From assembly GCA_964541305.1 (NCBI GenBank), contig CAZIPE010000001.1, positions 82,350 through 146,349 of the forward strand: 64,000 bases of DNA, given 5' to 3'. Each line of letters starts with the position of its first letter. Position 1 is the stretch's first letter. The translations under genes and the position numbers were made by a program. The notes under the pieces are model-generated. The model did not search any database. It was not told where the DNA came from and saw only the letters and a list, made by a program, of their open reading frames with translations. Shown piece after piece: positions 29,547-62,094 of the stretch. The DNA comes from an uncultured Candidatus Saccharibacteria bacterium (lineage in GTDB: Bacteria > Patescibacteriota > Saccharimonadia > Saccharimonadales > UBA7683).

Positions 29547-29595
29547 AGCGTTTAGTGTACCGTTTGCTGTTCTCTATCGCAAATGAACGCACATG

Positions 29596-34200: not shown

Positions 34201-34302
34201 TATGTTCCTTTGTTTATCAGATTGCTTATTAGTATAACATTGCACGAAAACACGTACAAAATGCTATAATTAATACCATAAGCATGAGGTATAATTAGAG
34301 AT

Positions 34303-36975
34303 ATGGCAAAAACTGTTAAGAAGGGCTCTGTGAGAAAGCCCGCTCAACGTAAGGGTTCTCACTCGGTTTACACTAATCTTGCAACTAAGCGCAAGGTAAA
34401 GGTAGATGCACGCTCCAGACAAAAAGCAGAATTTCTTGCAACACTTCCAAAATCGCGCATAAAGCGTTTCTTTTACCGTATGCATCCGCGACGCTTCTTT
34501 AAATACTGGTTCTCTAAAGAGGGTGGCTTGATGGCACTCAAAATTGGTGGGCTCGGTCTGGCGGCTTTTGTTATTCTTATCCTCACCATTTTCGCAATTT
34601 TCAGAAAAGATTTGGCGCTCGGCCCTGATGAACTCACCAAGCGCGTTCAGAGTCGAACGACAAAATTTTACGACCGAACAGGTCAAGTGCTTTTGTATGA
34701 TCTATATAAGGACCAACAACTGACCTTCGTAAAGCCCGATCAGATCTCAAACAACATGAAATATGCCATGGTGGCTATTGAAGATAAAGACTTCTATAAA
34801 CATGGTGGTTTTGATGTAAAGGGTATAGCGCGCTCTGTCGTAAACAACGCAAGTGGTGGTGGTAAACAAGGCGCCTCAACCATCACTCAGCAGTTGGCGC
34901 GTGTGGTTATTCTTGAAGACAATACTAGTACCGGGCTGGCGGGATACACTCGTAAAATTAAAGAACTCATTCTTTCAATTGAGCTAGAGCGTTCGTATTC
35001 AAAAGATGAGATACTTAACTTCTACCTCAACTCCGTCAGCTTTGGGGGCACAGCGATTGGTGTTGAATCTGCTGCTCAACGTTACTTCAACAAGCCTGCC
35101 AGTAAGTTGAGCATTGCCGAAGCAGCCTACATTGCGTCCATTCCACAATACCCTACGCTTTATGACAAAAATAATCCTAACTTCGATGCCGAACGCACAC
35201 TCGCACGGCAACAAACGGTTATAGATTATATGCGTGACCAGGGCTATATTACTGAAAAAGAAGCTACCGAAGCCAAGGAAGTTAAGATTCTCGCCAAAAT
35301 TAAACCGCTGAAGAATCAACAGAACATCAAAGCCCCTCACTTTGTGAACGAGATTATTAAAGACTTAGAAGGCCAATATGGTGCCGAAAATGTAAGACAA
35401 GGTGGCTGGCGCATTACCACAACACTTGATTGGAACATGCAACAACTTGCAGAAAAATCAATTGCAGATAACATTGCTAACGTTGATGCGCGCAATGGAG
35501 ATAATGCTGCACTTGTTGCCGTTGATGTAAAGACGAATCAAGTACTTGCCATGTCTGGTAGTCGCAACTACACCTTTAAAGGGTACGGCCAAACAAACGC
35601 AGCAACAGCCAAATTACAGCCAGGTTCGAGCCTTAAACCATTTGTGTATACCGAGCTATTTGATCAGGGCTCATACGGACCCGGCAGTGTCATACCGGAC
35701 ACCAGACAGGCCTTTTACGGCATTTATCCAAATAACTTCGATCGAGGCTTTAGAGGAAATATTAGTATACGAAGTGCTCTCGCTGAATCTCGTAACTTAC
35801 CCGCCATGAAAGCTGCACAAATGGTGGGTATGGACAAAGTTATTGAATCGCTTAAGAAGGCTGGTGAAACCGATATCACATGTGGTGTTGAGGGCGAATG
35901 TACCAACCCGTTCTTGGCAATCGGCTCAGGTGACGTTAATCTCGACCAACACACGGCCGCCTACGCCACTATTGCACGTGGATATGAAGCAAAACCTCAA
36001 ACCTCTATTCTTAAAATTGAAAAGCCTAATGGTGAAATTGTTCAGGAATGGAAAGACGCAAAGGGCTCACAAATCTACGGCGACGCCAACCGAGGTGAAC
36101 AGTTACGTTTCCTTATTAGTAGCATACTTTCTGATGATGTCGCGCGAGCTCCAACCTTTGGCTATGGACAACCTTGGTTCAATACACCTGGCGTGAAGAT
36201 GGCCATAAAAACTGGTACAACCGATAACTCGAAAGATGGTTGGATGATGGGCTACTCTCCTAAATTAGCTGTAGGTGTATGGGCTGGCAATCATGACGGC
36301 ACACCAATGGGAACGGCGACCGATCAAAGTACCGGCCCCATTTTTGGTCAGTTCGTAAAGGAAGCTCACGATAAAGTTATGACTAAGCCTCAGTACGGAT
36401 ATAAAGCAAATGAATGGTTCACTCAACCACAGGGTATACAGAAAATGAGAGTGGGGGGAAGGTGGGATATCTTCCAATCTTGGTTTAGAAAACCAAAGGA
36501 AAGTAAAAAGAAATTTACTATGGATAAAGTCTCAAAGAAGCTCGCAACGAGCTGTACACCAGCCGATGCCAAGGAGACTATTGAGGTTACTGTAGTAAGC
36601 GATCCGAATAGACCTGGTAGTGAAGTTATTGGTACGCCTCCCGCAGGCTACGATATTAAGAACAATGATGATGTACACAAATGTGGTGATAAAAAGCCGT
36701 CTGTAGGTGCTATCGGCCTCACAGAGATAGATCCTGATTCCAGAACCTACACTATTACCGCAAGCGTCAGCAAAGGCAAATTTAGTCTCGATAAAGTGGA
36801 ATTTATTGTCAACGGCCAGGTAGTCAGTTCGCAAAATGCAAAAGGTTCAAGTTACTCAACAACCTACAAGTTCCCCAAAGATGGTACTTACACTATCCGA
36901 GTCAGGACGGTTGACGAAGGATACTATCAAGGCGAGAATAGCATTACATCTGTAGTACCTGAAATTGAACCGTAA
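34303..36975 (+). CDS. class A penicillin-binding protein (glycosyltransferase + transpeptidase) with extra C-terminal beta-rich domain
   Basis: 890 aa. Contains a basic N-terminus plus TM segment, GT51 motifs (EDKDFYKHGGFD, RKIKE), and transpeptidase SxxK (GSSLKP), SRN and KTGT motifs. Confidence 0.95.
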   Translation: MAKTVKKGSVRKPAQRKGSHSVYTNLATKRKVKVDARSRQKAEFLATLPKSRIKRFFYRMHPRRFFKYWFSKEGGLMALKIGGLGLAAFVILILTIFAIFRKDLALGPDELTKRVQSRTTKFYDRTGQVLLYDLYKDQQLTFVKPDQISNNMKYAMVAIEDKDFYKHGGFDVKGIARSVVNNASGGGKQGASTITQQLARVVILEDNTSTGLAGYTRKIKELILSIELERSYSKDEILNFYLNSVSFGGTAIGVESAAQRYFNKPASKLSIAEAAYIASIPQYPTLYDKNNPNFDAERTLARQQTVIDYMRDQGYITEKEATEAKEVKILAKIKPLKNQQNIKAPHFVNEIIKDLEGQYGAENVRQGGWRITTTLDWNMQQLAEKSIADNIANVDARNGDNAALVAVDVKTNQVLAMSGSRNYTFKGYGQTNAATAKLQPGSSLKPFVYTELFDQGSYGPGSVIPDTRQAFYGIYPNNFDRGFRGNISIRSALAESRNLPAMKAAQMVGMDKVIESLKKAGETDITCGVEGECTNPFLAIGSGDVNLDQHTAAYATIARGYEAKPQTSILKIEKPNGEIVQEWKDAKGSQIYGDANRGEQLRFLISSILSDDVARAPTFGYGQPWFNTPGVKMAIKTGTTDNSKDGWMMGYSPKLAVGVWAGNHDGTPMGTATDQSTGPIFGQFVKEAHDKVMTKPQYGYKANEWFTQPQGIQKMRVGGRWDIFQSWFRKPKESKKKFTMDKVSKKLATSCTPADAKETIEVTVVSDPNRPGSEVIGTPPAGYDIKNNDDVHKCGDKKPSVGAIGLTEIDPDSRTYTITASVSKGKFSLDKVEFIVNGQVVSSQNAKGSSYSTTYKFPKDGTYTIRVRTVDEGYYQGENSITSVVPEIEP

Positions 36976-37718: not shown

Positions 37719-39062
37719 TTACGATTTTAAATAGGTATTGAGTGCTTCACGTAAGCTCGAAATTGATTGATACGTTGCGAGCGAGGTGTCTGATTTTGGC
37801 CCAATAGCCAGCTTAAAGCCAAGCTGTTTTGCCTCTTTAACTCGCTTTTCTATCTGTGGCACGTGGCGAACTTCACCAGAAAGACCCACTTCTCCGAATA
37901 CTACTGCATCTTGTTTGAGCTTCAAGCCTTTTGCTGCCGATGCAATTGCCATACATACTGCAAGATCCGCTGCCGGTTCAGTTATTTTGATACCGCCTAC
38001 AATGTTGATATACACGTCTTGCTCGCTTAAATCGAGTTTGGTGCGACGCGATAATACCGCAGTAAGTAGCGTCAAGCGGTTCAAATCAAAGCCCGAGGCG
38101 GCGCGCTTAGGGTAGCCAAACGATGTTCTATTCACTAGCGCTTGAACTTCAACCAAAATAGGTCGCGTTCCTTCCATGGCAGCAAGAACAATTGACCCAT
38201 CTGCCACTTGCCTCTCAGCAAGTAATGTGGCAGAGGGATTCTCAACGGGTAGCAATCCACCTTCTTTCATTTCAAATATCCCCACCTCTGAGGTAGAGCC
38301 ATATCTATTTTTAACTGCTCGGAGTGTTTTGAATCCACCGTATCTGTCTCCCTCTAAATTCAGCACCACGTCAACGAGGTGCTCCATCAGCTTAGGCCCA
38401 GCGATAGAGCCTTCTTTTGTGACATGGCCTACTAGAATAAGGGTAGTATTTGTTTGCTTGGCGACTTGCGAAAGAATATGGGTCGAATTGGTAATCTGAC
38501 TTACACTACCAGGAGCTGAAGCAACAGCTTGAGAGGTAATAGTTTGAATTGAATCAACAATAATGAGATCATAGTCCCCACTTAAAATTGTTTGAGCAAT
38601 GTCTTCAGTGCTATTAGAACTAGCGAGCAACACATCTTTATAGTTCTTCGTCACACGCTCAGCTCTGTTACTGACTTGATCAAGCGATTCTTCTCCGCTG
38701 ACGTAAAGTACTTTTTGCTTCTGTGCGATATTTGCTGCAATTTGCACAAGGAGTGTACTCTTGCCTATTCCTGGTTGTCCTGCCATCAATGACACGCTAC
38801 CGCATACAAAACCGCCCCCCAGCACACTATCCACATCACTGATAGAGCTTGAGATACGCCCCTTGGTGGTAGTTTTTGATGAACCCGCAGCCGTTGCCTT
38901 CAAGTGTGCACCACCGAGTCGGGCAGAAGTCAGATTAACGTTTTGTGGAAGTTCTTCAACAAGACTGTTCCAGGCGCCACAGCTCGAGCATCTTCCCGCC
39001 CATTTACTATGTTTGTAGCCACATTCCTGGCAAATAAATTGTGCTGTTTTTTTCGCCATCAT
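37719..39062 (-). CDS. radA: DNA repair protein RadA/Sms
   Basis: 447 aa with an N-terminal CxxC...CxxC zinc finger, a Walker A motif (GQPGIGKST), KNRYG and a Lon-like C-terminal domain. Confidence 0.97.
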   Translation of the reverse strand: MMAKKTAQFICQECGYKHSKWAGRCSSCGAWNSLVEELPQNVNLTSARLGGAHLKATAAGSSKTTTKGRISSSISDVDSVLGGGFVCGSVSLMAGQPGIGKSTLLVQIAANIAQKQKVLYVSGEESLDQVSNRAERVTKNYKDVLLASSNSTEDIAQTILSGDYDLIIVDSIQTITSQAVASAPGSVSQITNSTHILSQVAKQTNTTLILVGHVTKEGSIAGPKLMEHLVDVVLNLEGDRYGGFKTLRAVKNRYGSTSEVGIFEMKEGGLLPVENPSATLLAERQVADGSIVLAAMEGTRPILVEVQALVNRTSFGYPKRAASGFDLNRLTLLTAVLSRRTKLDLSEQDVYINIVGGIKITEPAADLAVCMAIASAAKGLKLKQDAVVFGEVGLSGEVRHVPQIEKRVKEAKQLGFKLAIGPKSDTSLATYQSISSLREALNTYLKS

Positions 39063-39081
39063 CTGACCTACAGTATATCAT

Positions 39082-40041: not shown

Positions 40042-42578
40042 TTAGAAATAGTATCCTTTATGCGTGTTTTTTTAGAAGATGATTTTGGCTTATCGCCTGT
40101 CTCCAACTGAAATACCAGTTTTTTCTTTAAGGCCTGTACGGTGATAGTCTGTTCAGTCTTATAGGTGCCAGAGAGCACACCTTCAGCCAGCTGATCTTCA
40201 ACCTCATCTTGCAATACTCTTCGCAGTGATCGTACGCCGTTGTGGGCATCATAACCCTTTTTGAGCAGCCACTTTTTAGCGCTTGGCTGCACTACTAACT
40301 GAAGGGGCGTTGATGTGTGGGCCAGGCGTTGATTGAGATCTTTTATTTGTAGATCAAGTACCTGCCCAGCTTCTTTTTGAGTAAGCGCCCTGAAAACCAC
40401 TATTTTATCGAGACGATTGATTAGTTCGGGTCGCATTACGCCCTTCAGCTCATCAAGCACTCGTTCTTTATTGCTTTCATGCAAATCATCGAGATTATCC
40501 AGATCTTTTTTGGTTTCAGCACGAAACCCAAGTATAGATTCTTTCTGTAAACTCTCAGCTCCTACGTTGCCTGTCATGATTATGACAGTATTAGTGAAAT
40601 CTACACTTCGGCCTTTGGCATCGGTCAAAACACCATCTTCAAGAATCTGAAGGAGCATATTGAAGATATCGGGATGAGCCTTTTCAATTTCATCAAGCAA
40701 TATAACGCTATACGGATTACGTCGCACTTTATCAGTCAGCTGTCCGCCGTCCTCGTAACCAACGTAACCGGCCGGTGCACCAACCAAACGAGAGGCAGTG
40801 TGTCGTTCGCTAAATTCACTCATATCGATTTTAATTAACGCATCTTTTCGCTCGTATAATTCACGAGCCAAAACGCGGGCTAGCTCAGTCTTGCCGACCC
40901 CTGTTGGGCCTAGGAATATAAAAGAACCAATCGGTCGTTTTTTATCACTCATGCCAAGCCGATTGCGCCTTAAGGCACGAGCAACTGATGTGATTGCTTC
41001 TTTTTGACCGATGACATAACGAGAAAGACTCTTCTCAAGCTTAAGTAAGTAATTTGCTTCTTTTTTTATCACTTTGTGCGCGGGAATGCCGGTCATTAGT
41101 TCAATCGTCTCAGCAAGGTCTGCTTCAGAAAGCGTAAGTTTAGCTCGACCGCGTCCTCGCTGTTTTTCAAGTGTTTTTTCAAGCTCTGCCAGCTTTGTTT
41201 TATGTCGTGCTGCCGCCTCAAAGTTTTCATGATCAACCGATTCTGCCAGACGGTGCCGTATGAGCTTAATTTCTTTAAGTAATTTTCGCTGACTCTCGGG
41301 GGTTTTGCCTCGCGAGATTCTAATATGAGCGGCAGATTCGTCTAAAAGATCCAGAGCTTTGTCGGGCATGAATCGCTCGCTCAAATACCGATCGCTCAAC
41401 TCTACGGCCTGATCAATTACCTCATCAGTAATTGCCACACTATGGTGCTCTTCGTAGTGCTTCTTGAGTCCTTTAAGAATCTCGCTGGTTTGTCTGAGTG
41501 TGGGCGGGTGGACCATAACAGTTTGGAAGCGACGCTCAAGAGCGCTATCTTTTTCGATACTCTTACGATATTCCTCAATGGTCGTTGCGCCAATAACTCG
41601 TACACTTCCTCGTGCCAAAACAGGTTTAAGCATATTTGCTGCATCCATAGAACCCTCGGCTGCACCTGCACCAACAAGCAAGTGTAGTTCATCAATAAAC
41701 AGCAGTACCGTCGGGTCATTGCTGATTTCATGCATTAACGCCTTTAAGCGCTCTTCAAATTCACCGCGGTACTTTGTGCCTGCAATTAAGCCAGCAAGGT
41801 CGAGCATAATAACTCTTTTGTCGAGCAGTTTTTCTGGCACCTGCTCTTTTGCAATTCGCTGAGCGAGGCCTTCCGCAATAGCCGTTTTACCCACACCAGG
41901 CTCACCAATAAGCACCGGGTTATTCTTAGTGCGCCGGCTCAATATCGTAATAACACGACGTAATTCTTCTTCTCGACCGATAACAGGATCGAGCTTGTTG
42001 GCACGCGCCTCTTCAGTCAGATCCGTTCCAAAATATTCTAGTGCACTCTTGCCTTTTTTCCGTTTCACCTTTGATGCGTTAGCTGGTTGATTAGGTTGCA
42101 GATCTTCAAACTCATATCGTTGTTGCTGGAGATACTGTTCGAGATCTACAACTAATTCTTCTACATTAATACTCATATCGCGGAGCAGTACGTTAGCCCG
42201 AGCGTTCTTTTGAATTAAGATTCCGTATAAAATATGCTCGGTACCACAGAAGTCTTGGTTAAATTCTTTAGCAATTTCCCAGCTTGTACGAAGCGTCAGC
42301 TTTGCCGCTTCACTCAAACCCTTGCTACCGACACTTATAACGATAGATTTAGGAGTTAACTTCAAAGCCGTGCGAGCACGATCAATTGTCACACCAGATG
42401 TTTCAAGTAGCTTCGCTCCGACAGAACTTTCTTGGCTGAGCACTCCAAGAAGTATGTGTTCCGTTCCTACATAGGCGCTACCCATACTCCGGGCAATTCC
42501 TTCGGCATTTCGAAGAGACAACCGAGCATTTTCAGTCAGTCGTTTGAGGTAATCCTGAAAGTCTGAACTTGCGTGCAT
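40038..42578 (-). CDS. clpC: ATP-dependent Clp protease ATP-binding subunit ClpC
   Basis: 846 aa with a double Clp_N repeat and two AAA+ modules ([16 protein letters not shown]). Confidence 0.97.
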
Positions 42579-42656
42579 GTTCTAATTATACTCCCTATCG
42601 CCCATTGTTTCGTTAGTATTGAAAATTTTACGATATAAATTTATAGTCACTCCTAC

Positions 42657-42685
42657 AGTATAGTAAATTAGCACTCTCGATACAA
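42657..42685 (-). promoter_or_regulatory. clpC promoter
   Basis: Minus strand reads TTGTAT (42680-42685), 17 nt, TATACT (42657-42662). The leader is roughly 75 nt and carries an AGGGAG SD. Confidence 0.55.
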
Positions 42686-42694
42686 GACTGCTAA
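42668..42694. promoter_or_regulatory. CIRCE-like inverted repeat (putative HrcA operator)
   Basis: TTAGCACTC-tcgatacaa-GACTGCTAA matches the CIRCE consensus at 17/18 positions, with the single mismatch at the same position as the clpP copy. It overlaps the -35 and spacer of the clpC promoter and the stop codon of the upstream ORF. Confidence 0.7.
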
Positions 42695-43230: not shown

Positions 43231-44457
43231 CTACTCTTCGTGGGACTCGATGGCGTCAATTAAGCCGGCCTCGATGTCGTCGCGTCGCTTTGGTTTTGTA
43301 GACTTCTTCTCGGCTGGTTTTGAAGGCGCTGGAGCAGGCTTAGGAGCTTCAACTTCAACAGGTTTTTCAGCTGGCTTTTCTTCAACTACTTCAACAACGG
43401 GAGCTGGAGCAGGAGTTGCTGATTCAATGTCGAGCTCATAGCCTGTAAGCTTGCTAGCAAGTCGTACGTTTTGACCACCCTTACCAATAGCAATTGAAAG
43501 CTGATCTTGTGGGACAAGCACTCGGGCATGTTTACCAGATTCGTTAATTTCAACACGAGTTACTTCTGTTGGTGAAAGTGCGTTTTTAATGTACGTTTCA
43601 GAGTCTTCAGCAAATGTGATGATGTCAATCTTCTCCTGTTCACCAATCTCCTGCATAACAGCCTGTACGCGAGTACCGTGACCACCAACGAAGGTGCCCA
43701 CTGGGTCAACACCCGGAACGGTAGAAGCAACTGCCAGCTTGGTGCGCATACCTGCTTGACGTGCGATACCTTTAATTTCAACAGCACCACTTTCCATTTC
43801 TGGCACTTCTTGTCGGAAAAGGAACTCAATGAACTTATCGTTAGCTCGCGAAAGCACCAGCTGAGGACCTCTGAATTCGCGTTCAACATCTTTTAGAAAT
43901 ACTTTTACACGTGCACCGACGCCGTAGTATTCACCAGGTATCTGTTCGCTAGCAGGTAGAATCCCCACTGCTTTACCAAGATCAATACGAACTATGCGAG
44001 GCTCAACACGTTGGACAGTACCAACAAGCACGGTACCGATCTTATCTTCATATTCGTTCATGATGATCTCACGTTCTGCTTCACGTAGACGTTGTAAGAT
44101 GACCTGCTTCGCTGTCTGAGCTGCAACACGACCAAAAGTAGTAGGATGCTCGGTAATTTCAATCACATCACCGACTTTCGCATCTTTTTTATGTGCTTTT
44201 GCCTGCTCAACTGTCATTTGCTGAGCATCGTTTTCAACCGCATCACCTTCGACTACATCGTAGCTTGTAACGGCCGTCATGTCGCCGGTGTGATGATTTA
44301 GTATTACTTTTACATTCTGCTCTCGTTCACCGTAATCTTTGCGGTACGCAGCTGCTAGCGCCTGCTCGACAGACTCGGCTACGATATCTTCAGGAAGATT
44401 CTTTTCTTCAGCGATTTGTTTAATTGCTGTTATTAATTGTTTTATTTGTAGTTCCAT
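43231..44457 (-). CDS. nusA: transcription termination/antitermination factor NusA (with Pro/Ala/Lys-rich C-terminal tail)
   Basis: 408 aa with an N-terminal domain, S1 and two KH domains (IGKGGQNVRLASKLTG). The last ~70 aa are low-complexity. Confidence 0.97.
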   Translation of the reverse strand: MELQIKQLITAIKQIAEEKNLPEDIVAESVEQALAAAYRKDYGEREQNVKVILNHHTGDMTAVTSYDVVEGDAVENDAQQMTVEQAKAHKKDAKVGDVIEITEHPTTFGRVAAQTAKQVILQRLREAEREIIMNEYEDKIGTVLVGTVQRVEPRIVRIDLGKAVGILPASEQIPGEYYGVGARVKVFLKDVEREFRGPQLVLSRANDKFIEFLFRQEVPEMESGAVEIKGIARQAGMRTKLAVASTVPGVDPVGTFVGGHGTRVQAVMQEIGEQEKIDIITFAEDSETYIKNALSPTEVTRVEINESGKHARVLVPQDQLSIAIGKGGQNVRLASKLTGYELDIESATPAPAPVVEVVEEKPAEKPVEVEAPKPAPAPSKPAEKKSTKPKRRDDIEAGLIDAIESHEE

Positions 44458-44500
44458 TTTATGTTTCCTTTCGTTTTAAAATGAATGTGGTTCTAAGATG

Positions 44501-44523
44501 AAAAACGCCGACCTGCTGGCCGG
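44501..44523 (-). terminator. short hairpin + U-tract between the upstream ORF and nusA
   Basis: Minus-strand RNA reads CCGGCC-AGCA-GGUCGG then CGUUUUU. It forms a G.U wobble on the minus strand only, and an A.C mismatch on the plus strand. Confidence 0.5.
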
Positions 44524-44536
44524 ACTGTACATGCCT

Positions 44537-44564
44537 ATTATACTCCCTGGGAATAATGAGTCAA
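44537..44564 (-). promoter_or_regulatory. strong promoter-like element upstream of nusA
   Basis: Minus strand reads TTGACT (44559-44564), 16 nt, TATAAT (44537-44542). It lies immediately after the stop of the upstream ORF and upstream of the hairpin. Confidence 0.55.
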
Positions 44565-44565
44565 C

Positions 44566-45015
44566 CTAACCCTCTGCAAAATATGGCATCTCATTAGCTG
44601 AAAAAGCTGACATACTGACCATGCCCAAAGCAATCTGGTCTTCCGCACGCTTAACTCTCATTGACGCGATTTCACCATAAGACTCAGCAACGACCGTCTC
44701 TGCAAGCGCAACACCAAAACCTTCTCTAGCAGTAAATAACAGTAGTGCCCTCCCCGATAACCTGAGCAGACCATCCGGAGTATCTTTTTCAGAAAAGCGT
44801 TCCACTAATAACCCCGTTGATATCTGAACTACTCCGCCAACATCTCCTCTGGATCTTATGGCTATACCACGAAATTTCGTGCTTGCCTGATCACCAGGCA
44901 TTACTACAGAAGCAAGGTCACAAAGAGCCTCTGAAAGTATTGGGGATGCCCAATTACTCATGACGAGACCCTCGGGGTCACTTCGACTCACAATCACCAT
45001 ATCTCTTTCACTCAT
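44566..45015 (-). CDS. hypothetical protein, about 149 aa
   Basis: Start set at MSERDMVIV (45015), 8 nt after TATACT, with TTGACA further upstream. It occupies the position usually held by rimP but shows no RimP similarity. Confidence 0.55.
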   Translation of the reverse strand: MSERDMVIVSRSDPEGLVMSNWASPILSEALCDLASVVMPGDQASTKFRGIAIRSRGDVGGVVQISTGLLVERFSEKDTPDGLLRLSGRALLLFTAREGFGVALAETVVAESYGEIASMRVKRAEDQIALGMVSMSAFSANEMPYFAEG

Positions 45016-45068
45016 GAATATATAGTATATCATTTTGTCGTATATGTCAATACTTTATACTAGTGCCT

Positions 45069-47588
45069 ATGATTAAAAAACTACACGATCTTTTCAAGCC
45101 AGAAAACTATGACCTGCACCTCGACATCAACACCAAAGATTCTGAGTTTTTTGGTATTGTTGAAATTTCAGGTGAGCTTGCCTACGAAAGTTCCATGGTA
45201 GAGCTTCACTCAAAAGACTTGAAAATAATCTCGGCGACCATTAACGGTGATAAAGCCTCTGCAAGCTTTGGAGCCCACGACACACTAAAGCTTCAAAACG
45301 AGAAGGAGCTTAAAGCAGGACAGATTAAGATCAAGGTTGAATTTTCTGGAACAATCACCGATCACATGCATGGTATATATCCTTGTTATTTTAACTATGA
45401 AGGAAAGCGCAAAAAACTTATTGCCACACAGTTTGAAAGTCATCATGCACGCGAAGCATTCCCTTGCGTAGACGAGCCCTCAGGTAAAGCAACTTTTGAT
45501 CTCGAGTTTGCAACCAATGCGAACGAGACCGTACTTGCAAACACCCCTGTTAAAAAACAACGTACCGAACATACACGGCTCATAACACGCTTTGAAACAA
45601 CGCCAAAAATGAGTCCGTATCTTCTTGCGTTTGTTACCGGCGAGATGATCAGCGTAGAAGCTAAAACTAAAAGTGGCATAACGGTAAAGAGTTGGGCCTC
45701 AAAAGCGCAAGATCCGAGCTTTCTAAACTTTTCGGTATCAGAAGCAGTTGCGTATATTGATTTTTATGAGGAATACTTCGGTGTAAAATACCCACTTAGC
45801 AAATGCGATCAGGTAGCGTTACCTGATTTTGAGAGCGGTGCAATGGAAAACTGGGGCTTAATTACCTACCGCGAATCGGTCATGCTTGATAACCCCACCA
45901 ACCCTTCGCTCAGTACACGACAGTACATTGCCATTGTGACTGCTCACGAGCTCGCCCATCAGTGGTTTGGGAACTTGGTGACCATGAAGTGGTGGGATGA
46001 CTTGTGGCTCAACGAGAGTTTTGCAAGCATTATTGAATATATTGCTGTTGATCGCATACATCCTGAATGGCATATGTGGGAAGATTACGTCTCAGCCGAC
46101 GCAATCAACGCCACGAACCGTGATGTGTACTTAGATGTTCAGCCGGTTCGTGTTGAAGTAAATGACCCTGAAGTTATTCATACAATTTTTGACCCTTCAA
46201 TTGTCTACGCTAAAGGGGGTAAATTATTGAAAGCCTTACATGACTTTATTGGTGAAGATGCATGGCGTAAAGGTTTAAAACAGTATTTCAAGACGCACGC
46301 CTACAGCAACACTACGGGAGATGACCTATGGGAGGCACTTGCCGAAGCATCTGGTGCAGATGTTGCAGGGCTTATGAATACCTGGCTTGAACAGCCCGGG
46401 CTACCAAAGGTGAGTGTTACCCAGCACGGCCACGGGGTTGAACTAGAGCAGAAGCGACTACTACTTGATGGAAGCGATGGTGACTCAACCTGGATTATCC
46501 CTCTCGCAAACGGGAAAGAAGTTACGATGTTGGCGACAGCCTCTCAATCAGTAGAAATGAAAGATGATAACTGGGTCATGCTCAATCATAGTGGGATTGG
46601 GCACTTCGTCACCGACTACACCGTTCCAGCACACAAAAAATGGATTGCTCAGCAGATACATAACCCAAAACAACCCAGCACCTGGAAGATTGCGCGTTTG
46701 AATGAGTTAATTATGTTAGCTCGCCACGGTGATACTGATTTGACCGAAGCTTTGAATGGTATTGAGGGCAGTTCCGGTGAACAACGGGCGGCGGTATGGT
46801 CACAAATTGCGACGGTTATCGGACATGCCAGAAACTTAACCGAGGGCGATAAAGAAACACGCTATAAAATACGTACTTGGATGTATAACTTAGTTGAAGA
46901 TCATTACGAAAAGCTCGGCTGGGACTATAGTGAAACAGAAGACAGTAACACCACACACCTGAGAACGACCGTACTTAGCATAGCGATGGGTTCGCGCAAC
47001 GAACAAGCAATAAAAAAAGCCCTTGAGATCTACGCACTAACGTCAGATATAGCTAATCTTCCTTCTGAAATACGAACAAACATTCTCGGAGTAGCGGTAC
47101 GACGCAGTAAAGATCCTGATGTGGCGCAAGAGTTGCTGAAGATATACACCGCATCTCACAGCGCTGAACTGCGCAGTGATATCTGCGTAGCCCTTACTTC
47201 AACACACAAAAAAGAAGACTACACTCACCTCATTTCACTCATGACCGACACCACTATCGTACGGACACAAGATACCATACGCTGGTTTGTGTATTTACTC
47301 AGAAATCGCCATAGTCGTGATGCAACCTGGCATTGGTTAAAAGAAAATTGGAGTTGGATTGAAAAAACCTTCGGAGGAAGTAAAAGTTATGATGATTTTG
47401 CACGCTACAGCGCCAGTATATTCAACACTGAGGAGTGGCTTAAGCGCTACATCGCGTTCTTTTCAGACAGGCAGTCCGATCCTACGCTAAAGCGAACCAT
47501 TGCCATCGGCATTAAAGAGATTGAAGCGCGTGTTGCGTGGCGTGAACGAGATGAGCCGAAAATTGTATCTTGGTTTGAAAAACGTTAA
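45069..47588 (+). CDS. pepN: aminopeptidase N (M1 family)
   Basis: About 839 aa with GAMENWG and HELAHQWFGNLVTMKWWDDLWLNESFA motifs. The ATG at 45069 lies 7 nt after TATACT. The track GTG at 45063 is possible. Confidence 0.96.
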   Translation: MIKKLHDLFKPENYDLHLDINTKDSEFFGIVEISGELAYESSMVELHSKDLKIISATINGDKASASFGAHDTLKLQNEKELKAGQIKIKVEFSGTITDHMHGIYPCYFNYEGKRKKLIATQFESHHAREAFPCVDEPSGKATFDLEFATNANETVLANTPVKKQRTEHTRLITRFETTPKMSPYLLAFVTGEMISVEAKTKSGITVKSWASKAQDPSFLNFSVSEAVAYIDFYEEYFGVKYPLSKCDQVALPDFESGAMENWGLITYRESVMLDNPTNPSLSTRQYIAIVTAHELAHQWFGNLVTMKWWDDLWLNESFASIIEYIAVDRIHPEWHMWEDYVSADAINATNRDVYLDVQPVRVEVNDPEVIHTIFDPSIVYAKGGKLLKALHDFIGEDAWRKGLKQYFKTHAYSNTTGDDLWEALAEASGADVAGLMNTWLEQPGLPKVSVTQHGHGVELEQKRLLLDGSDGDSTWIIPLANGKEVTMLATASQSVEMKDDNWVMLNHSGIGHFVTDYTVPAHKKWIAQQIHNPKQPSTWKIARLNELIMLARHGDTDLTEALNGIEGSSGEQRAAVWSQIATVIGHARNLTEGDKETRYKIRTWMYNLVEDHYEKLGWDYSETEDSNTTHLRTTVLSIAMGSRNEQAIKKALEIYALTSDIANLPSEIRTNILGVAVRRSKDPDVAQELLKIYTASHSAELRSDICVALTSTHKKEDYTHLISLMTDTTIVRTQDTIRWFVYLLRNRHSRDATWHWLKENWSWIEKTFGGSKSYDDFARYSASIFNTEEWLKRYIAFFSDRQSDPTLKRTIAIGIKEIEARVAWRERDEPKIVSWFEKR

Positions 47589-47931: not shown

Positions 47932-48485
47932 AACAAGGCCTTAATTGGTTTGTATGATTGTCTGTGAATCTCAGTTACACCGTGCTCCTGCAGTGCACTA
48001 CGATGCAATCGTGTTCCGTAGCCAACATGTTTTTCAAAAGAATAGTTCGGGTATTTTACGGCAATTTCTTTCATGTAACTGTCGCGTGCCACCTTAGCGA
48101 CAATTGAAGCGGCAGACACAGCAGGTACGGTGTCATCAGCTTTAATCAAAGCAGTAGTACGAGGTATGTCAGAAAGAAAGTTATAGTTACCATCAATTAC
48201 TATTTCAATATCATAATAGTCAATTTGTTCGAGCGCCCTTCGCATGGCCAGTCTCACGCTTTCGGTCAGACCGAGAACGTCAACCTCTTTTGCATCAACC
48301 CAGCCTACGCCAATTGCGTGGGCATTTTTTTGAATCTCTACATTGAGTAGGTTTCGCTTACGTTCAGATAACTTTTTAGAATCTTTCAACCCATTAATCG
48401 CCGTCACGTCATCCATTAGTACTGCCGAGGCCACTAGAGGCCCCGCCCAACAACCTCGCCCCACTTCATCAATGCCTATAATCAT
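47928..48485 (-). CDS. rnhB: ribonuclease HII
   Basis: 185 aa, IIGIDEVGRGCWAGPLV..., DSKKLS. Confidence 0.95.
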   Translation of the reverse strand: MIIGIDEVGRGCWAGPLVASAVLMDDVTAINGLKDSKKLSERKRNLLNVEIQKNAHAIGVGWVDAKEVDVLGLTESVRLAMRRALEQIDYYDIEIVIDGNYNFLSDIPRTTALIKADDTVPAVSAASIVAKVARDSYMKEIAVKYPNYSFEKHVGYGTRLHRSALQEHGVTEIHRQSYKPIKALL

Positions 48486-48515
48486 AGGTTAGATTATAGC
48501 AATAGTGAGACTACT

Positions 48516-49043: not shown

Positions 49044-49159
49044 AACCAAACAACTTTACCTTATCTTTACTATTTTTGCAATTAGCACTATCTTATCACA
49101 TCTGTTAATTTAACGCAACGGGTAGGCAATATCTTAATTGAACCTTATACTAGGTACTT

Positions 49160-50293
49160 ATGGACGAAATATCGCAAAAAGCACTGGAGATACATAAAAA
49201 ACTTCGTGGAAAGATCGAGGTAACATTAAAAGATAAACTCGACAAACCCGAGAAATTAAAACTGTACTACACCCCTGGCGTTGGCGCAGTGAGTTCATAC
49301 GTTGCACAGCACCCTGAGGAAGCTCGTGACTACACCTGGCTCAATAACTCAGTTGCCGTCGTGTCTGATGGCTCAGCAGTACTGGGACTCGGCAATATTG
49401 GACCTCTCGGCGCTTTACCAGTTATGGAAGGTAAATGCATGCTTTTCAAACAGTTTGCGGGCATTGATGCTGTTCCAATAGTTCTTGATGTGCACAGTGC
49501 CGATGAGATCGTTTCAGCGGTTAAAGCAATTGCGCCAAGTTTTGGTGCCATTAATCTTGAAGATATTGCAGCACCAATTTGTTTTGAAGTTGAAGAAAGA
49601 CTGAAAGAAGAGCTGTCCATTCCTGTCATGCACGATGATCAACACGGCACCGCCATCGTGGTGTTAGCTGGGCTCATCAATTCTATGAAAGTGGTTGGCA
49701 AGAATCTTTCGGACTGTAAAATTGTCTTAGTTGGTGCAGGCGCAGCCGGAGTGGCCGTTGCTAAACTGATTCAGCTCTACGCACAGCCGACTATTATTGC
49801 TGTGGATAGTAAGGGAATCGTGGAATCATCAAGAACTGACTTAAATAGTGAGAAGCAACTTCTTGCAGGCTTTTCGCAGAACACACAACCTGGCTCCCTC
49901 GCCGATGCCCTGCAAAATGCAGATGTCTTTATCGGTGTCTCACAACCAGGCTTACTGACACCTGATATGATTCGAACAATGGCGAAAGATCCTGTTGTAT
50001 TTGCTCTCGCCAACCCGGTGCCTGAAATTATGCCGGAAGAAGCGCTTGGTGCTGGCGCAAAAGTAGTTGCTACCGGAAGAAGCGACTTTCCCAACCAGGT
50101 AAATAACGCTCTCGCCTTCCCTGGAATTTTCCGCGGAGCGCTAGATAACCAAGTTGAGAAGATAACAGACGAGCACAAAATCGCAGCCGCAGAGACAATA
50201 GCCGGGCTCGTCAAAACTCCAACCCCGAGTGAAATTATTCCCTCAATATTTGCTGATGGTCTTACGAAACTGATTGCGGACACAATCAATTAG
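49160..50293 (+). CDS. NAD(P)-dependent malic enzyme (short form)
   Basis: 377 aa, ALEIHKKLRGKIEV, YTPGV, and a GAGAAG Rossmann motif. Confidence 0.92.
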   Translation: MDEISQKALEIHKKLRGKIEVTLKDKLDKPEKLKLYYTPGVGAVSSYVAQHPEEARDYTWLNNSVAVVSDGSAVLGLGNIGPLGALPVMEGKCMLFKQFAGIDAVPIVLDVHSADEIVSAVKAIAPSFGAINLEDIAAPICFEVEERLKEELSIPVMHDDQHGTAIVVLAGLINSMKVVGKNLSDCKIVLVGAGAAGVAVAKLIQLYAQPTIIAVDSKGIVESSRTDLNSEKQLLAGFSQNTQPGSLADALQNADVFIGVSQPGLLTPDMIRTMAKDPVVFALANPVPEIMPEEALGAGAKVVATGRSDFPNQVNNALAFPGIFRGALDNQVEKITDEHKIAAAETIAGLVKTPTPSEIIPSIFADGLTKLIADTIN

Positions 50294-50642: not shown

Positions 50643-52259
50643 TTATATCACGCGATTTATTTCTTCGAGAGTAGTGATACCCTGGATACACTTTAAAATA
50701 CCGTCTTGGTACATGGTGAGCATACCTTGCTGTTGCGCTTGAGCTTCAATTTGCGGTGCTGAGGGGATATTGTAGGGGTCTTTTAAGAGCGCTTGAATTT
50801 CGGGCGTGATTATCAGCTCTTCTAGAACGGTCACCCGACCTCTATAACCGAATTGGTTCTCTTCTGACTTACCTGGTTTGTATAGTTTTACTGTAGCAAG
50901 ATCAGGTTTTTCAACTGAATCCGGCAAATCTTTCAGTGAATCTTCAAGATGTTTTTTAAGCGCGGCATCAGGCTCATATTCTATTTTTGTTGCGTCATCA
51001 AGTCGACGCACGAGTCGCTGACTTATAATCAACTTTATTGCTGATATAAGTATCGGGTTTTGCCCAATCATATCAATCATGCGCGTAAACGCCTCTGCAG
51101 CAGAACCGGCGTGAAAGGTGGAAAGTACAAGATGACCCGTAATCGATGCCTGGAGGGCGGTACGAGCCGTGTCAACGTCTCTAATTTCACCGACCATGAC
51201 AACATCGGGGTCAAGTCGTAGAACCGCTCGAAGCTTGTTAGCAAAACTATCGCCTTCACGAGTGGAAACCGGAATCTGGCTCATGCCGTCCAGCCCATAT
51301 TCAACAGGATCCTCAAGTGTCAGAATCTTTCTTTCTGAGGTGTTTAAACGTTGAAGAATTGAATACAATGTCGTCGTTTTACCCGAACCAGTCGGACCCA
51401 CCATCAAGACCATGCCTCGAGGATGTGAAATCACTTCATCAATCGGCACACGCTCGCGTTCAGTTAAACCAAGGTTATCGAGATTCAAAAGCTCTGTGTC
51501 CATGTTAAACAAACGTAGTACTGCGTCCTGGCCGTACAGCGTAGGCACCGTTTCAATACGCATGTTTAGCGTTTTTGTGGTGCCATCAGCACCCGTTATC
51601 TCTTGACTCAAATGTCCCGTCTGGGCATCAGGTGCAGAGGTTGATATATTTGCTTTTACGGCTATCGATTGTTGAATTTGGCGATACTTCATATGGGTAA
51701 CAACCGCAATAAGGTGCAAGGCCCCATCAATACGCAGCCGCAAACGTACTCCCATTTTTGCTGTTTCAAAGTGAATATCTGAGGCAGTCAGCTTATCGGC
51801 CTGATTTATGACGTATTCCAAGATGTCGTCAGATTTAACACCTTCGAGTGTCTCTGATACTTTTTTGAGGTTCTCACTTGCACCTTCAGTTTTAATACTG
51901 ATGTCATCGTACACCACCTCTTTGGGCGGGTCGTGACGTAGCATAAATTCTTTGTAGCCACTTTTTGAGATCATGACAAATTCAATAATCTTGTCAATAA
52001 ACCTCTCGCGTAACTCTCTGAGCGTTTGTTGCGGGGTGTCTATGGTTATTGCAAAGGTATATCCCGTACCGGTGTCATAGAGTGGGATTAGTTTTTTTTC
52101 GTACATCTCTTCAATCGTTAGCACATTCCGAACCAAAGGGGTGTCTTTAAGCGTACGGCTATCAACGTACTGAAGTTTGAGCAGTGTCGCACGTTGTCTC
52201 GTGCTACCCTCATCGGTCTCGCGAAACTTGACCTGGTCGCCTGAAGTATTAAAAGCCAT
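50643..52259 (-). CDS. pilB: type IV pilus / type II secretion assembly ATPase (GspE/PilB family)
   Basis: 538 aa with Walker A (GPTGSGKTTT), Asp and His boxes, and an N-terminal GSPII_E-like domain. Confidence 0.9.
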   Translation of the reverse strand: MAFNTSGDQVKFRETDEGSTRQRATLLKLQYVDSRTLKDTPLVRNVLTIEEMYEKKLIPLYDTGTGYTFAITIDTPQQTLRELRERFIDKIIEFVMISKSGYKEFMLRHDPPKEVVYDDISIKTEGASENLKKVSETLEGVKSDDILEYVINQADKLTASDIHFETAKMGVRLRLRIDGALHLIAVVTHMKYRQIQQSIAVKANISTSAPDAQTGHLSQEITGADGTTKTLNMRIETVPTLYGQDAVLRLFNMDTELLNLDNLGLTERERVPIDEVISHPRGMVLMVGPTGSGKTTTLYSILQRLNTSERKILTLEDPVEYGLDGMSQIPVSTREGDSFANKLRAVLRLDPDVVMVGEIRDVDTARTALQASITGHLVLSTFHAGSAAEAFTRMIDMIGQNPILISAIKLIISQRLVRRLDDATKIEYEPDAALKKHLEDSLKDLPDSVEKPDLATVKLYKPGKSEENQFGYRGRVTVLEELIITPEIQALLKDPYNIPSAPQIEAQAQQQGMLTMYQDGILKCIQGITTLEEINRVI

Positions 52260-52330
52260 AACCGTTATTATACTGTACTGTGGCGTATCTCGTCATCCCT
52301 AAAGTACAAAAGTCGCGTATACTGATGCAC

Positions 52331-52846
52331 ATGAACGTTATTCTTGTAGCCCATGATATACGAAGCACCCACAATGTCGGAGCATTTTTCCGCACCTGTG
52401 ACGGGCTTGGTATTTCAAAGATTATTTTTAGTGGCTACACGCCGTTCCCTGCGTTTGAAGGTGATAGTCGTCTGCCTCATTTCGCCGATAAAATAACCCG
52501 ACAAATTCACAAAACCGCTCTAGGAGCTGAATCAAGTGTACTCTTTGATGTATTCAAAACGATGGAAGAGGCGCTCGCCAGCCTCAAAGAATCCGGTGTT
52601 ACTCTGGTTGCGTTAGAACAAGAAAAAAATAGTTTAAGTCCTGAAACAATACGCCAAAAACTCATCAAGACTAATCGAAACAAAACAGTCGCTCTTATTG
52701 TAGGCAACGAGATACATGGTGTTGACAACGAGACCCTTAAGGACGTTGACTACATTATGGAAATTCCGATGCATGGCACCAAGGAGTCACTCAATGTCTC
52801 GGTTGCCACTGCTATTGCTCTGTACGAGCTGACCCGTACTACTTGA
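52331..52846 (+). CDS. SpoU/TrmH-family RNA 2'-O-methyltransferase
   Basis: MNVILVAHDIRSTHNVGAFFRTCDGLG...IVGNEIHGV...SLNVSVATAIALYE. Start set 7 nt after TATACT (52318-52323). The track start at 52280 is a GTG. Confidence 0.85.
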   Translation: MNVILVAHDIRSTHNVGAFFRTCDGLGISKIIFSGYTPFPAFEGDSRLPHFADKITRQIHKTALGAESSVLFDVFKTMEEALASLKESGVTLVALEQEKNSLSPETIRQKLIKTNRNKTVALIVGNEIHGVDNETLKDVDYIMEIPMHGTKESLNVSVATAIALYELTRTT

Positions 52847-55800: not shown

Positions 55801-56498
55801 GCCTCTTGATCTTCATGTTGCAAGTAATGTGCATCACACGTCACGACAACGGGAATATCTAACTTTTTGGCAAGTTCAAATAGCTTTTTATTAACTTTCA
55901 CCTGTTCATCCCAGCGGCTCGGTGCATCAGGATGGCCATGGTCTTGTACTTCAATGTAGTAGCGGTCTCCAAACACCTTCTTGTACCAAGTGGCTGTCTC
56001 ATAGGCTTGTGCATCTTGATTGTTGCGTAGATAATCCCCGATTTCACCACCTATACAACCCGAGAGAACTATTAGACCTTCGTTATATTTTTCAAGTAAA
56101 TCATGGTCAATCCGTGGTTTAAAATAGAAACCATCCAGATTAGCAATAGTGGAAAGTCGCATTAGGTTTTGATACCCCTGATTGTTCATGGCTAGTAATA
56201 TAAGGTGATATCGCGCCTTATCGACACCAGGTTCTTTGTCGAGATGTGTTCGGTTAGCAACGTAGGTTTCCATACCGATAATTGGCTTCATATCTCGATC
56301 TTTTGCTGCCTTGTAAAACTCAATCGCACCCGAAAGCGTACCGTGGTCGGTAATAGCAACGCTTTCCATGCCCATTACCTTCACGCCATCAAGCATTTGT
56401 GGTACTTTTTGCAGACCATCAAGAAGACTATAGTGGGTATGATTATGCAAATGAACATACTCACTTGGTTTAATTTTTACTCCATCAGCACTCATCAT
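52839..56498 (-). CDS. dnaE: DNA polymerase III alpha subunit
   Basis: 1219 aa with an N-terminal PHP domain (HLHNHTHYSLLDG), polymerase core, OB fold, and a Lys/Pro-rich linker plus an extra C-terminal domain. Confidence 0.98.
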   Translation of the reverse strand: MMSADGVKIKPSEYVHLHNHTHYSLLDGLQKVPQMLDGVKVMGMESVAITDHGTLSGAIEFYKAAKDRDMKPIIGMETYVANRTHLDKEPGVDKARYHLILLAMNNQGYQNLMRLSTIANLDGFYFKPRIDHDLLEKYNEGLIVLSGCIGGEIGDYLRNNQDAQAYETATWYKKVFGDRYYIEVQDHGHPDAPSRWDEQVKVNKKLFELAKKLDIPVVVTCDAHYLQHEDQEAHEILLCVQTGAFLSDQNRMSLKEFELHVTDPKEIIARWADEHPDVITNTKAIADRCNVELDLGKILIPKFPVPKGEDEKSYLHKLVYRGLAWRYGGVEEARSKRITQEEAMQTLPKDILERATYELEVIDKMGFNGYFLIVSDFINWGKDQGIVFGPGRGSAAGSIVAYSTRITELDPLKYDLLFERFLNPDRISMPDIDIDIQDTRRNEVIEYCAEKYGRDRVANIVTFGTMAARAAIRDVARVLQVPYAEADRIAKLIPPPVQGRHIPLAESIKNDKDLKAEYENNATTKQVIDLAVRLEGTIRSHGVHAAGVVIAPDDIVKFVPLEMAQKGVVSTQYAMGPVEDLGLLKMDFLGLSNLTILRNALRIIKRVYGSAIDLDEIPLDDEKAFELFQKGDTTGVFQLESAGMKRYLRQLKPTVFEDIVAMVALYRPGPMQFIDEFISRKHGEKKITYPHASMENSLINTYGILVYQEQVMQISKEVCGFTGGQADTLRKAIGKKNAQLMAKMKDQMIEGGEKHSGISRDLMERFWKQLEDFAAYCFNKSHAACYGLIAYWTAYLKAHYPDAFMAALMTSDADDIDRLSIEITECQHMGLEVLQPDVNESFVEFAVVPDKKQIRFGMSAIKNVGTGAVEEIIATREEGGTFKDINDFVTRVDTRKVNRKVWESLIKSGGFDSLGKSRGDLLYNLDGILALGSKIHKEKETNQADIFGGLDDAAPSVAPQFTFETAPEQSSEREMLLWERELLGLYLSSHPLDPYGAYFEENAVPITSLTSAMDNKSTTIGGVINSVRNITTKNGSKMAFVKLEDKSGDMELIVFPKSYDAVQDSLVQDKIVVVKGKINCKDRDGGLSDEVKLMVDDLKEITQEDVDAYKPTGKKPKAPKPKKPEEKKEMKQPVQSPVVSPTHASQPKLYVHLKDPQDHEKLLSLKKLAGEHPGDHELILVIGEDSKKTALKMPFSITTDTDLQDKLKDVFQPECIVFK

Positions 56499-56500
56499 CT

Positions 56501-56521
56501 TCTAGTATAGCGTATACTAGA
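56501..56521. promoter_or_regulatory. palindrome formed by two back-to-back -10 boxes (dnaE / recF)
   Basis: TCTAGTATA-gcg-TATACTAGA has perfect 9-bp arms. The minus-strand TATACT (56504-56509) serves dnaE and the plus-strand TATACT (56513-56518) serves recF. Confidence 0.6.
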
Positions 56522-56529
56522 GTTCTGAT

Positions 56530-58532: not shown

Positions 58533-58798
58533 TATTCGTCCTCCTTATTGTGTTTCTTTACTGCATTGCTAATTTGGTCTGCAACAAACTTTGCGACTAC
58601 AGCAGGTGCTGCGGCTGTTTTCATGGTTGCTGCTACTGAACCAGCATCTTTTACAAGTTGGCTTGCTTTATCAGAAATTTCTTTTACGTTTTTCATGAAC
58701 TTTACAAGGTACACCAAAACGATAATTCCTAGTAGAAGAAAGATTGCCAGAAAGACCGATAAAATAATTACGAGTATGTCATATGAATCCATGTTCAC
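58532..58798 (-). CDS. DUF948-like small membrane protein
   Basis: 88 aa with an N-terminal TM segment then a helical region. It sits immediately upstream of the YtxH gene, as in Firmicutes. The family name is from memory. Confidence 0.6.
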   Translation of the reverse strand: MNMDSYDILVIILSVFLAIFLLLGIIVLVYLVKFMKNVKEISDKASQLVKDAGSVAATMKTAAAPAVVAKFVADQISNAVKKHNKEDE

Positions 58799-58828
58799 AT
58801 TCTACCATTTTTAGTACAAAGCTTCAAT

Positions 58829-62008: not shown

Positions 62009-62094
62009 TACTTTAATTATAACAGATTGAATGAAATGTGTTTGCAAATGATTAAGATTAGGCTTATGATTAACAAAAGGTACGGAGACTCAGT

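Follow-up and report, generated by a model that had tools for sequence, protein, structure and literature searches.

We describe an architecture of promoters and start codons in a 64-kb chromosome window (the window, i.e., the whole stretch of DNA that was analysed) of a member of the Saccharibacteria (TM7), a lineage belonging to the CPR (Candidate Phyla Radiation), or Patescibacteria. The GC content of the window is approximately 44%, and its housekeeping genes include clpP, tig, and dnaE besides the rpoBC, str, and S10 ribosomal-protein region. Many of its genes begin a few nucleotides downstream of a TATACT-like hexamer and carry no Shine-Dalgarno (SD) sequence. Judged from the sequence, these hexamers are very probably sigma-70-type -10 elements of leaderless genes, while SD sequences are used by genes that are coupled to an upstream gene or transcribed with a leader. 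A dual system of this kind, in which SD-less starts abut a -10 element and coupled or long-leader genes have an SD, had been proposed in an earlier note on this DNA and is backed by all sequence-level tests that we ran. The motif, its position and statistics, its near exclusivity with the SD, its promoter hallmarks, and its conservation in Saccharibacteria are direct observations.

At 45013-45071, two promoters of the leaderless type stand back to back within the 53 nt that separate the divergent start codons of a 149-aa open reading frame (ORF) and of pepN, the gene of an M1 aminopeptidase. The promoter of the 149-aa ORF (45013..45050, minus strand) comprises TTGACA at 45045-45050, TGa, and TATACT at 45024-45029, or alternatively TACTAT at 45022-45027, followed by ATG 45015. 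On the plus strand, pepN (45056..45071) shows TATACT, a gap of 7 nt, and ATG 45069, where gap denotes the number of nucleotides between the end of the hexamer and the start codon. TTGACA had been taken for the -35 element of the 149-aa ORF. It is present, but lies only 15 nt from TATACT; the register TACTAT gives a spacer of 17 nt and a gap of 6 nt, and TTGACA-17-TACTAT is what a generic promoter scan reports at this ORF.

The upstream regions of all likely genes in the window were listed, and the coordinates of hexamers and ATGs were then verified. Gene calls are simple codon-usage calls (approximately 63 genes). Gene starts were set by a motif-blind rule, the first ATG of each called ORF, for 59 genes; the null model consists of 1000 dinucleotide shuffles of the upstream regions, and motifs were counted 5-9 nt before the ATG. 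TAnnnT occupies this position in 21 of 59 genes versus 7.7±2.5 in the shuffles (maximum 15), and TATA[AC]T in 10 of 59 versus 0.36±0.61 (maximum 4). A comparison of the hexamer-to-ATG distance with shuffled upstream regions had been suggested in the earlier note as a check, and the signal of the window lies above all 1000 shuffles. Other windows of 5 nt farther upstream contain TAnnnT in 7-15 genes and TATA[AC]T in 0-2; before internal ATGs, the two motifs are found in 7.8% and 0.1% of the cases, respectively. An artefact of in-frame TAA or TAG stop codons preceding the first ATG was considered and ruled out. Hexamers of the form TA[TC]..T, which cannot be stop codons, carry the whole peak, and TA[AG]..T hexamers are without a peak at 5-9 nt; the peak is therefore not produced by in-frame stops. 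An archaeal-type promoter box, expected about 26 nt upstream, was also looked for, and no peak appears at gaps of 20-30 nt.

The two signals are distributed according to gene context. Among genes that follow an upstream gene on the same strand at less than 15 nt, a proximal -10 element is found in 1 of 21 and an SD in 14 of 21. With a distance of 15-60 nt on the same strand, the ratio turns to 7 of 9 with a -10 element versus none with an SD, and divergent genes have a -10 element in 10 of 16 cases and an SD in 4 of 16. Only 2 of the 59 genes show both signals. The SD-led set includes ribosomal proteins, tuf, fusA, rpoB, rpoC, pyrF, nusA, and tyrS. The SD sequences quoted in the earlier note for rpoB (AAGGAG), rpsL (GGAGG), rplC (AAGGA), and pyrF (GGAGGG) are all present, and the identities of these genes are confirmed by Pfam. 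A promoter predicts such a distribution, with the hexamer in a single one of the tightly coupled genes; a ribosome-binding motif does not. The description of the hexamer-led genes as first in their operons holds only loosely, as many of them lie only 35-50 nt downstream of a gene on the same strand.

For comparison, relatives were gathered by a profile search with a pepN alignment as query; a single pepN protein as query returned no confirmed relatives. The profile search yielded 80 loci, among them 31 from Saccharibacteria, 21 from Lactobacillales, 9 from Chloroflexota, and 4 from other CPR bacteria; hundreds of homologues of the pepN product are labelled Candidatus Saccharibacteria or Saccharimonadales, on which the assignment of the window to a Saccharibacteria chromosome is based. 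In the 31 Saccharibacteria loci, which contain 355 genes, the gap between TAnnnT and the start codon peaks at 6 nt (50 genes), followed by 7 nt (29) and 8 nt (25). Net of background, approximately 24% of these genes are of the leaderless type, and the dependence of -10 elements and SDs on gene context mirrors that of the window.

The architecture is kept gene by gene, although the intergenic DNA of the orthologues cannot be aligned. TAnnnT precedes the conserved MDYN start of the malic enzyme by 6-7 nt in 13 of 14 orthologues, and a proximal -10 element is found for trmH in 12 of 15, for pilB in 13 of 19, and for rnhB in 16 of 25 orthologues, in the last case mostly with a gap of 6 nt and often directly after a terminator hairpin. 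For pepN, TAnnnT stands 6-9 nt ahead of the ATG in about 27 of 33 orthologues, and four or five have an SD instead. Mixed situations are found for radA (-10 element in 7 of 17, SD in 8 of 17) and for clpC (5 of 23 and 13 of 23, respectively), and two dnaE orthologues show gaps of 8-9 nt. The nusA gene lacks a proximal -10 element in all 24 orthologues and has an SD in 22 of them. In a relative with a 93% identical pepN, the promoter and start of pepN (TGTCAATACTTTATACT..TGCCTATG) are conserved, and the divergent neighbour is a different gene. A more distant relative, at 58-61% identity, carries the divergent pair itself, with TTGACA-17-TAAAAT-8-GTG for the homologue of the 149-aa ORF and TATACT-7-ATG for pepN.

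The hexamers also carry hallmarks of promoters. Over the Saccharibacteria loci, the hexamers have the consensus TA(t/c)A(a/c)T, and the discriminator behind them is rich in A. The extended -10 element TGn, which is recognised by sigma region 3.0, precedes 8 of 19 hexamers in the window and 61 of 129 (47%) in the Saccharibacteria loci, versus 5 at a control position. The combined pattern TG.TA...T occurs at gaps of 6-9 nt in 64 Saccharibacteria genes, compared with about 1.5 at any other position. By this enrichment, the hexamer is identified as a sigma-70 promoter and distinguished from a ribosome-binding motif. A -35 element with at least 4 of 6 matches at a spacing of 16-18 nt is found in 7 of 21 window cases versus 1 of 21 at control spacings.

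Further evidence is provided by operators of the CIRCE type (controlling inverted repeat of chaperone expression), to which HrcA binds. Two of them are found in the window, at 21655-21681 and 42668-42694, each with one mismatch to TTAGCACTC-N9-GAGTGCTAA, while 0.05 are expected by chance. A distance of exactly 5 nt separates each of them from the -10 hexamer downstream of it, at clpP and at clpC, respectively. In three clpC orthologues (loci L008, L022, and L052), which are among the five with a proximal -10 element, the same layout of CIRCE, 5 nt, hexamer, 6 or 8 nt, and ATG is observed. The usual sites of this operator are groESL and dnaK, and the copies in the window precede clpP and clpC instead.

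A motif at this position could also be an A/T-rich, SD-independent ribosome-binding or enhancer element within a normal 5' untranslated region (UTR), as known from Bacteroidetes (GeneMarkS-2 group B), with transcription starting farther upstream. It would fit this explanation that the genes in question have no SD, that the motif sits where a ribosome-binding site is expected, and that a scan for -35 plus -10 elements does not rise above shuffles. However, such an element should precede operon-internal genes as well, where the motif is found in only 1 of 21 cases, and the TGn extension in nearly half of the lineage's hexamers speaks against a ribosomal role. The same hexamer also occurs 20-75 nt upstream of the SD-led genes nusA, tyrS, and the ORF at 26185, where it can only be a promoter. 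Together with the fixed distance of 5 nt between the hexamer and CIRCE, a transcriptional operator, these observations render a ribosome-binding element improbable, though it is the best of the alternatives to leaderless promoters.

The earlier note had shortened several genes relative to their longest ORF. Pfam profile coordinates and the N-termini of homologues support the proposed short starts, and 5 of 7 that were looked up stand already in the public annotation. The alignments with Pfam profiles cover residues 1-145 of trigger factor (Trigger_N, 1-144) and residues 1-173 of RsmD (Cons_hypoth95, 1-181). Position 1 of RNase_HII falls on residue 3 of RNase HII (rnhB), position 2 of SpoU on residue 3 of the SpoU/TrmH protein, position 2 of SMC_N on residue 6 of RecF, and position 1 of the Zn-ribbon profile on residue 9 of RadA. 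The GatC profile fits a protein of 95 aa, which is the length in the public annotation as well. In 43 homologues of the pepN product, the N-terminus MIK..L....Y is conserved from ATG 45069, and the sole diverged homologue of the 149-aa ORF (58% identical) begins at the same Met.

The public annotation of the source contig uses the starts 45015, 45069, 56498, 58792, and 62008; the focal ORF is annotated by NCBI with 149 aa and the ORF at 58792 with 86 aa. It places the starts of two further genes at 6419 and 52325 rather than at 6413 and 52331. These two ATGs lie 0-1 nt past the hexamer and therefore upstream of the predicted transcription start. Under the leaderless model they would be outside the transcript, and translation would start at 6413 and 52331.

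One may ask whether the starts are mis-called altogether. Translation would then begin farther downstream, the hexamers would be normal promoters of leadered genes, and what is taken for coding sequence would conceal the SDs. In-frame alternatives within a few codons do exist (6419/6413, 52325/52331, 56498/56495, and 39062/39059), and the annotation differs at two genes, as just described. But these alternatives differ by 1-2 codons and still fall into the leaderless range. Moreover, the Pfam profiles of tig, rsmD, rnhB, trmH, and recF begin at most 1-3 residues from the proposed Met, the N-termini of PepN and malic enzyme are conserved from it, and the homologue of the 149-aa ORF shares its Met, so that we consider mis-called starts very unlikely. 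Chance, finally, by which TA-rich hexamers would simply be common in AT-rich intergenic DNA near starts, is practically negligible: the GC content and the occurrence of TAnnnT before internal ATGs do imply some background, but the counts exceed those of every dinucleotide shuffle, the peak at 6-8 nt is narrow and the background elsewhere flat, and the pattern persists in orthologues with otherwise unalignable intergenic sequence.

Several observations weigh against the reading of the hexamers as promoters of leaderless genes. The commonest gaps in the window are 7-8 nt, whereas +1 would fall on the A of the start codon at a gap of 6 nt; leaders of 1-3 nt are thus possible for some transcripts. 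The generic scan of the window for -35 plus -10 elements gives 40 hits versus 35±5.6 in shuffles, i.e., no enrichment, and the -35 element thus contributes little; the scan was not used as support. Related Saccharibacteria loci are syntenic, and the pooled counts are for this reason not fully independent. Single cases are ambiguous as well: recF has a gap of 11 nt to its TATACT, dnaE offers two ATGs, and clpC has a second promoter. The last gene is ambiguous or has two promoters, and it may be leadered, as the CIRCE-linked TATACT would give rise to a leader of approximately 72 nt. Some genes fit neither class cleanly and were left unclassified, namely recG (32651), rplS (49043), a 363-aa ORF (20226), and the genes at 30600 and 25948; recG and rplS count here as contrary cases.

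According to the mechanism that we propose for the leaderless genes, sigma-70 holoenzyme would recognise a -10 element of the form TA(t/c)A(a/c)T, often TGn-extended and accompanied by a weak -35 element, and ending 6-8 nt ahead of the ATG. The first transcribed nucleotide would be the A of this ATG or one that is 1-3 nt away, the mRNA would have neither a 5' UTR nor an SD, and ribosomes presumably bind its 5'-terminal AUG directly. Tightly coupled operon-internal genes, as well as highly expressed or regulated genes with leaders (ribosomal proteins, tuf, rpoBC, nusA, and tyrS), use a canonical SD. We infer the transcription start sites (TSS) and the leaderless mode of translation from the identical signature that has been validated in Actinobacteria and Deinococcus.

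This signature was described as "TA-led" genes by Zheng et al. 2011 (PMC3160421) and corresponds to group C of GeneMarkS-2 (PMC6028130): first-in-operon genes have a Pribnow box 6-8 nt ahead of their starts, and operon-internal genes have an SD. On average, Actinobacteria have 19% TA-led genes, Deinococcus-Thermus 39%, and Firmicutes 4% (PMC3160421). Leaderless architecture was validated by differential RNA sequencing (dRNA-seq) in M. tuberculosis, M. smegmatis, D. deserti, and S. coelicolor (PMC3160421, PMC6028130, PMC3898074, PMC4007540, PMC4633059). The window resembles these systems in the TAnnnT box 6-8 nt (or, counted from its first T, about 12 nt) before the starts of genes with their own promoter, in the lack of an SD on these genes and its presence on operon-internal ones, in the share of 20-40% of genes affected, and in the switching of orthologues between the TA-led and the SD-led state over evolutionary time. 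It differs in that the host belongs to the Saccharibacteria and in the informative middle of the hexamer (TATACT or TATAAT) at about 44% GC, whereas high-GC phyla show a bare TAnnnT. The frequent TGn extension with a weak -35 element and the very compact divergent pairs, with 31-71 nt between start codons, are further differences. The TA-led and group C systems are validated by TSS; the architecture described here is read from the sequence.

Two other groups show partial likeness. Group B of GeneMarkS-2 (Bacteroidetes and the wider Fibrobacteres-Chlorobi-Bacteroidetes group) also has many SD-less genes with an A/T-rich motif shortly before the start, but there the motif is found in leadered mRNAs ahead of first genes and internal genes alike, whereas in the window it is excluded from internal genes and bears promoter hallmarks. 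In archaea with leaderless transcripts (group D), first-in-operon genes are leaderless and internal genes have an SD, as proposed here; however, archaea have their TATA box about 26 nt upstream of the start codon, and the window shows no peak at 22-30 nt.

Neither the TA-led survey nor that of GeneMarkS-2 included CPR bacteria (PMC3160421, PMC6028130). In a core-promoter study of 2025, 188 TSS of N. lyticus TM7x were inferred from RNA-seq coverage and described as imprecise, and leaders were not commented on. Full-text literature searches returned no paper that links leaderless genes or SD usage with Saccharibacteria, CPR, Patescibacteria, or TM7, only co-occurrences in reference lists. A Patescibacteria perspective of 2024 and a genetics paper of 2023 make no mention of transcription start sites, UTRs, or ribosome-binding sites, and a preprint on the TM7x transcriptome contains no text on TSS or promoters. 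Judged from the sequence, this is the known TA-led or group C architecture, in a lineage for which our literature searches found no published description.

As for its extent outside the Saccharibacteria, the loci of the profile search give a heterogeneous picture. In a locus of Candidatus Nomurabacteria (L058), TGnTAnAAT precedes the ATG by exactly 6 nt in 7 of 18 called genes; this one locus hints that CPR bacteria other than Saccharibacteria may share the architecture. Two Doudnabacteria loci (L056 and L067) show little of it (2 of 19 and 1 of 18 genes), and the 9 Chloroflexota loci have no TAnnnT peak. In Lactobacillales loci, the SD is used in all contexts, and only a few leaderless-type genes recur. 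Near pepN of streptococci (loci L024, L026, L042, L044, L070, and others), a few genes carry TGgTATAAT, 7-8 nt, and ATG, e.g., those of a 310-aa protein starting MEKIIITATAESIEQ and of an 817-aa protein starting MKTIGNRYVVVDLEA; leaderless-type starts thus occur sporadically in SD-dominated genomes.

Both the window (approximately 30% of genes) and the Saccharibacteria loci (approximately 24% net) fall within the high range of reported leaderless fractions. We lean towards the view that abundant leaderless genes are a conserved trait across Saccharibacteria and at least some other CPR/Patescibacteria, where they would make up about 25-35% of the genes and about half of the transcription units. 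Comparable levels were otherwise reported mainly for Actinobacteria and Deinococcus-Thermus. If the view is correct, CPR bacteria are among the major users of SD-independent initiation, and a deep-branching, genome-reduced lineage joins the heavy users of leaderless genes. This would matter for debates about the evolutionary origin of the mechanisms of translation initiation and would bear on the question whether leaderless initiation represents the ancestral state in Terrabacteria-like lineages or arose as a by-product when genomes became compact. In these compact genomes, the leaderless layout would also account for divergent genes that are separated by only 31-71 bp. From a practical point of view, a leaderless-aware model would improve the placement of starts in metagenome-assembled genomes of Saccharibacteria and other CPR bacteria. 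Genetic tools for the newly tractable Saccharibacteria could make use of a minimal promoter design, TGnTATA(A/C)T, 6-8 nt, and ATG, without a ribosome-binding site.

The inventory of leaderless-type promoters starts from 11 pairs of hexamer and ATG listed in the earlier note, all of which were found at their coordinates with gaps of 5-8 nt. About 8 further cases were added (tig, radA, clpC, rnhB, pilB, an 86-aa ORF, gatC, and recF), which gives approximately 19 of the approximately 63 genes (about 30%), or about half of the window genes without tight coupling to an upstream gene. TATACT occurs 43 times on both strands together, and in about 10 of these cases a long ORF has its first ATG 5-11 nt downstream. 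The extended form TATACTAG occurs 6 times; 5 copies directly precede a start codon, and the sixth lies antisense to the -10 element of clpP.

On the minus strand, a coiled-coil ORF (6411..6425) has TGaTAAAAT (hexamer TAAAAT at 6420-6425), 6 nt, and ATG 6413, with ATG 6419 abutting the hexamer, and a 215-aa ORF (21007..21023) has TAGAAT, 8 nt, and ATG 21009. In clpP (21635..21681, minus strand; Pfam CLP_protease), CIRCE at 21655-21681 is followed by 5 nt, TGcTAGTAT (21644-21649), 6 nt, and ATG 21637. Also on the minus strand are tig, the trigger factor gene (23188..23207; TGcGATAAT, 8 nt, ATG 23190), rsmD (28703..28719; TATACTAG with TATACT at 28714-28719, a gap of 8 nt, ATG 28705), and a 268-aa ORF (29544..29559; TTGCGA-17-TACACT, 7 nt, ATG 29546). 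The PBP1A gene on the plus strand (34290..34305; Pfam Transgly/Transpeptidase) shows TATAAT, 7 nt, and ATG 34303. For radA (39060..39080, minus strand), TGaTATACT lies 9 nt from ATG 39062 and 12 nt from ATG 39059. The region of clpC (42576..42694, minus strand) contains TATAAT at 42585-42590, 6 nt, and ATG 42578, and farther upstream CIRCE at 42668-42694, 5 nt, and TATACT at 42657-42662. This upstream TATACT is followed after 6 nt by a GTG that opens an ORF of 22 codons.

In the second part of the window, rnhB (48483..48501, minus strand) has TGcTATAAT, 7 nt, and ATG 48485, and the malic enzyme gene (49146..49162, plus strand) has TAGGCA-17-TATACTAG, a gap of 8 nt, and ATG 49160. A pilB-like T2SSE ATPase gene (52257..52272, minus strand; ATGACG-18-TATAAT, 7 nt, ATG 52259) and the gene of a SpoU/TrmH methylase (52318..52333, plus strand; TATACT, 7 nt, ATG 52331, with ATG 52325 located 1 nt past the hexamer) diverge with 71 nt between their start codons. 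In a second divergent pair, 31 nt separate the start codons of dnaE and recF, and the -10 elements are back to back. On the dnaE side (56493..56509, minus strand), TATACTAG leaves a gap of 5 nt to ATG 56498 or of 8 nt to ATG 56495; on the recF side (56513..56532, plus strand), ATG 56530 is preceded by TATACT with a gap of 11 nt or by TAGAGT with a gap of 6 nt. Two genes on the minus strand complete the set, an 86-aa membrane ORF (58790..58807; TTGAAG-17-TGgTAGAAT, 6 nt, ATG 58792) and gatC (62006..62024; TGtTATAAT, 7 nt, ATG 62008).

A still shorter distance separates the divergent start codons of recG (ATG 32651, minus strand) and a gene for pterin-4a-carbinolamine dehydratase (ATG 32668, plus strand), which are 16 nt apart (window 32649-32670); at recG, both an SD and a suitably placed -10 element are missing.

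Three SD-led genes serve as contrast. The ORF at 26185 (26150..26187, plus strand) has a short leader, with TGcTATAAT, 20 nt that include AAGGAG, and ATG 26185; tyrS (34198..34245, minus strand; Pfam tRNA-synt_1b) has TATACT at 34231-34236, 28 nt that include AAGGA, and ATG 34200. The leader of nusA (44455..44564, minus strand) is longer, approximately 75 nt. Its promoter TTGACT-16-TATAAT (44537-44564) is followed by a hairpin with a U tract (44508-44523), the SD AAAGGAAA, and ATG 44457. This promoter is the best full promoter of the scanned region, and the hairpin of 6 bp with its U tract (CCGGCCAGCAGGTCGG CGTTTTT) is nearly invariant upstream of nusA across most Saccharibacteria loci (ccggccggcaggtcgg-ttttt). 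The leader has no match in Rfam, and its fold energy is no better than that of shuffles. It resembles a conserved attenuator, possibly one by which NusA regulates its own synthesis.

The slot between nusA and pepN (window 44566-45015) is variable. Upstream of nusA, rimP is expected, and the 149-aa ORF was considered as a divergent RimP; this was rejected, with no Pfam hit even at E=0.1. Among 5.8 billion proteins, just two are related to the product of this ORF. In two related loci, the slot is occupied by unrelated ORFs, one of 187 aa (L081, 9385-9948; pepN 93% identical) and one of 172 aa (L082, 9426-9944; pepN 62%). None of the three slot ORFs (149, 187, and 172 aa) has a Pfam hit, and the Pfam domains of NusA are present in both related loci.

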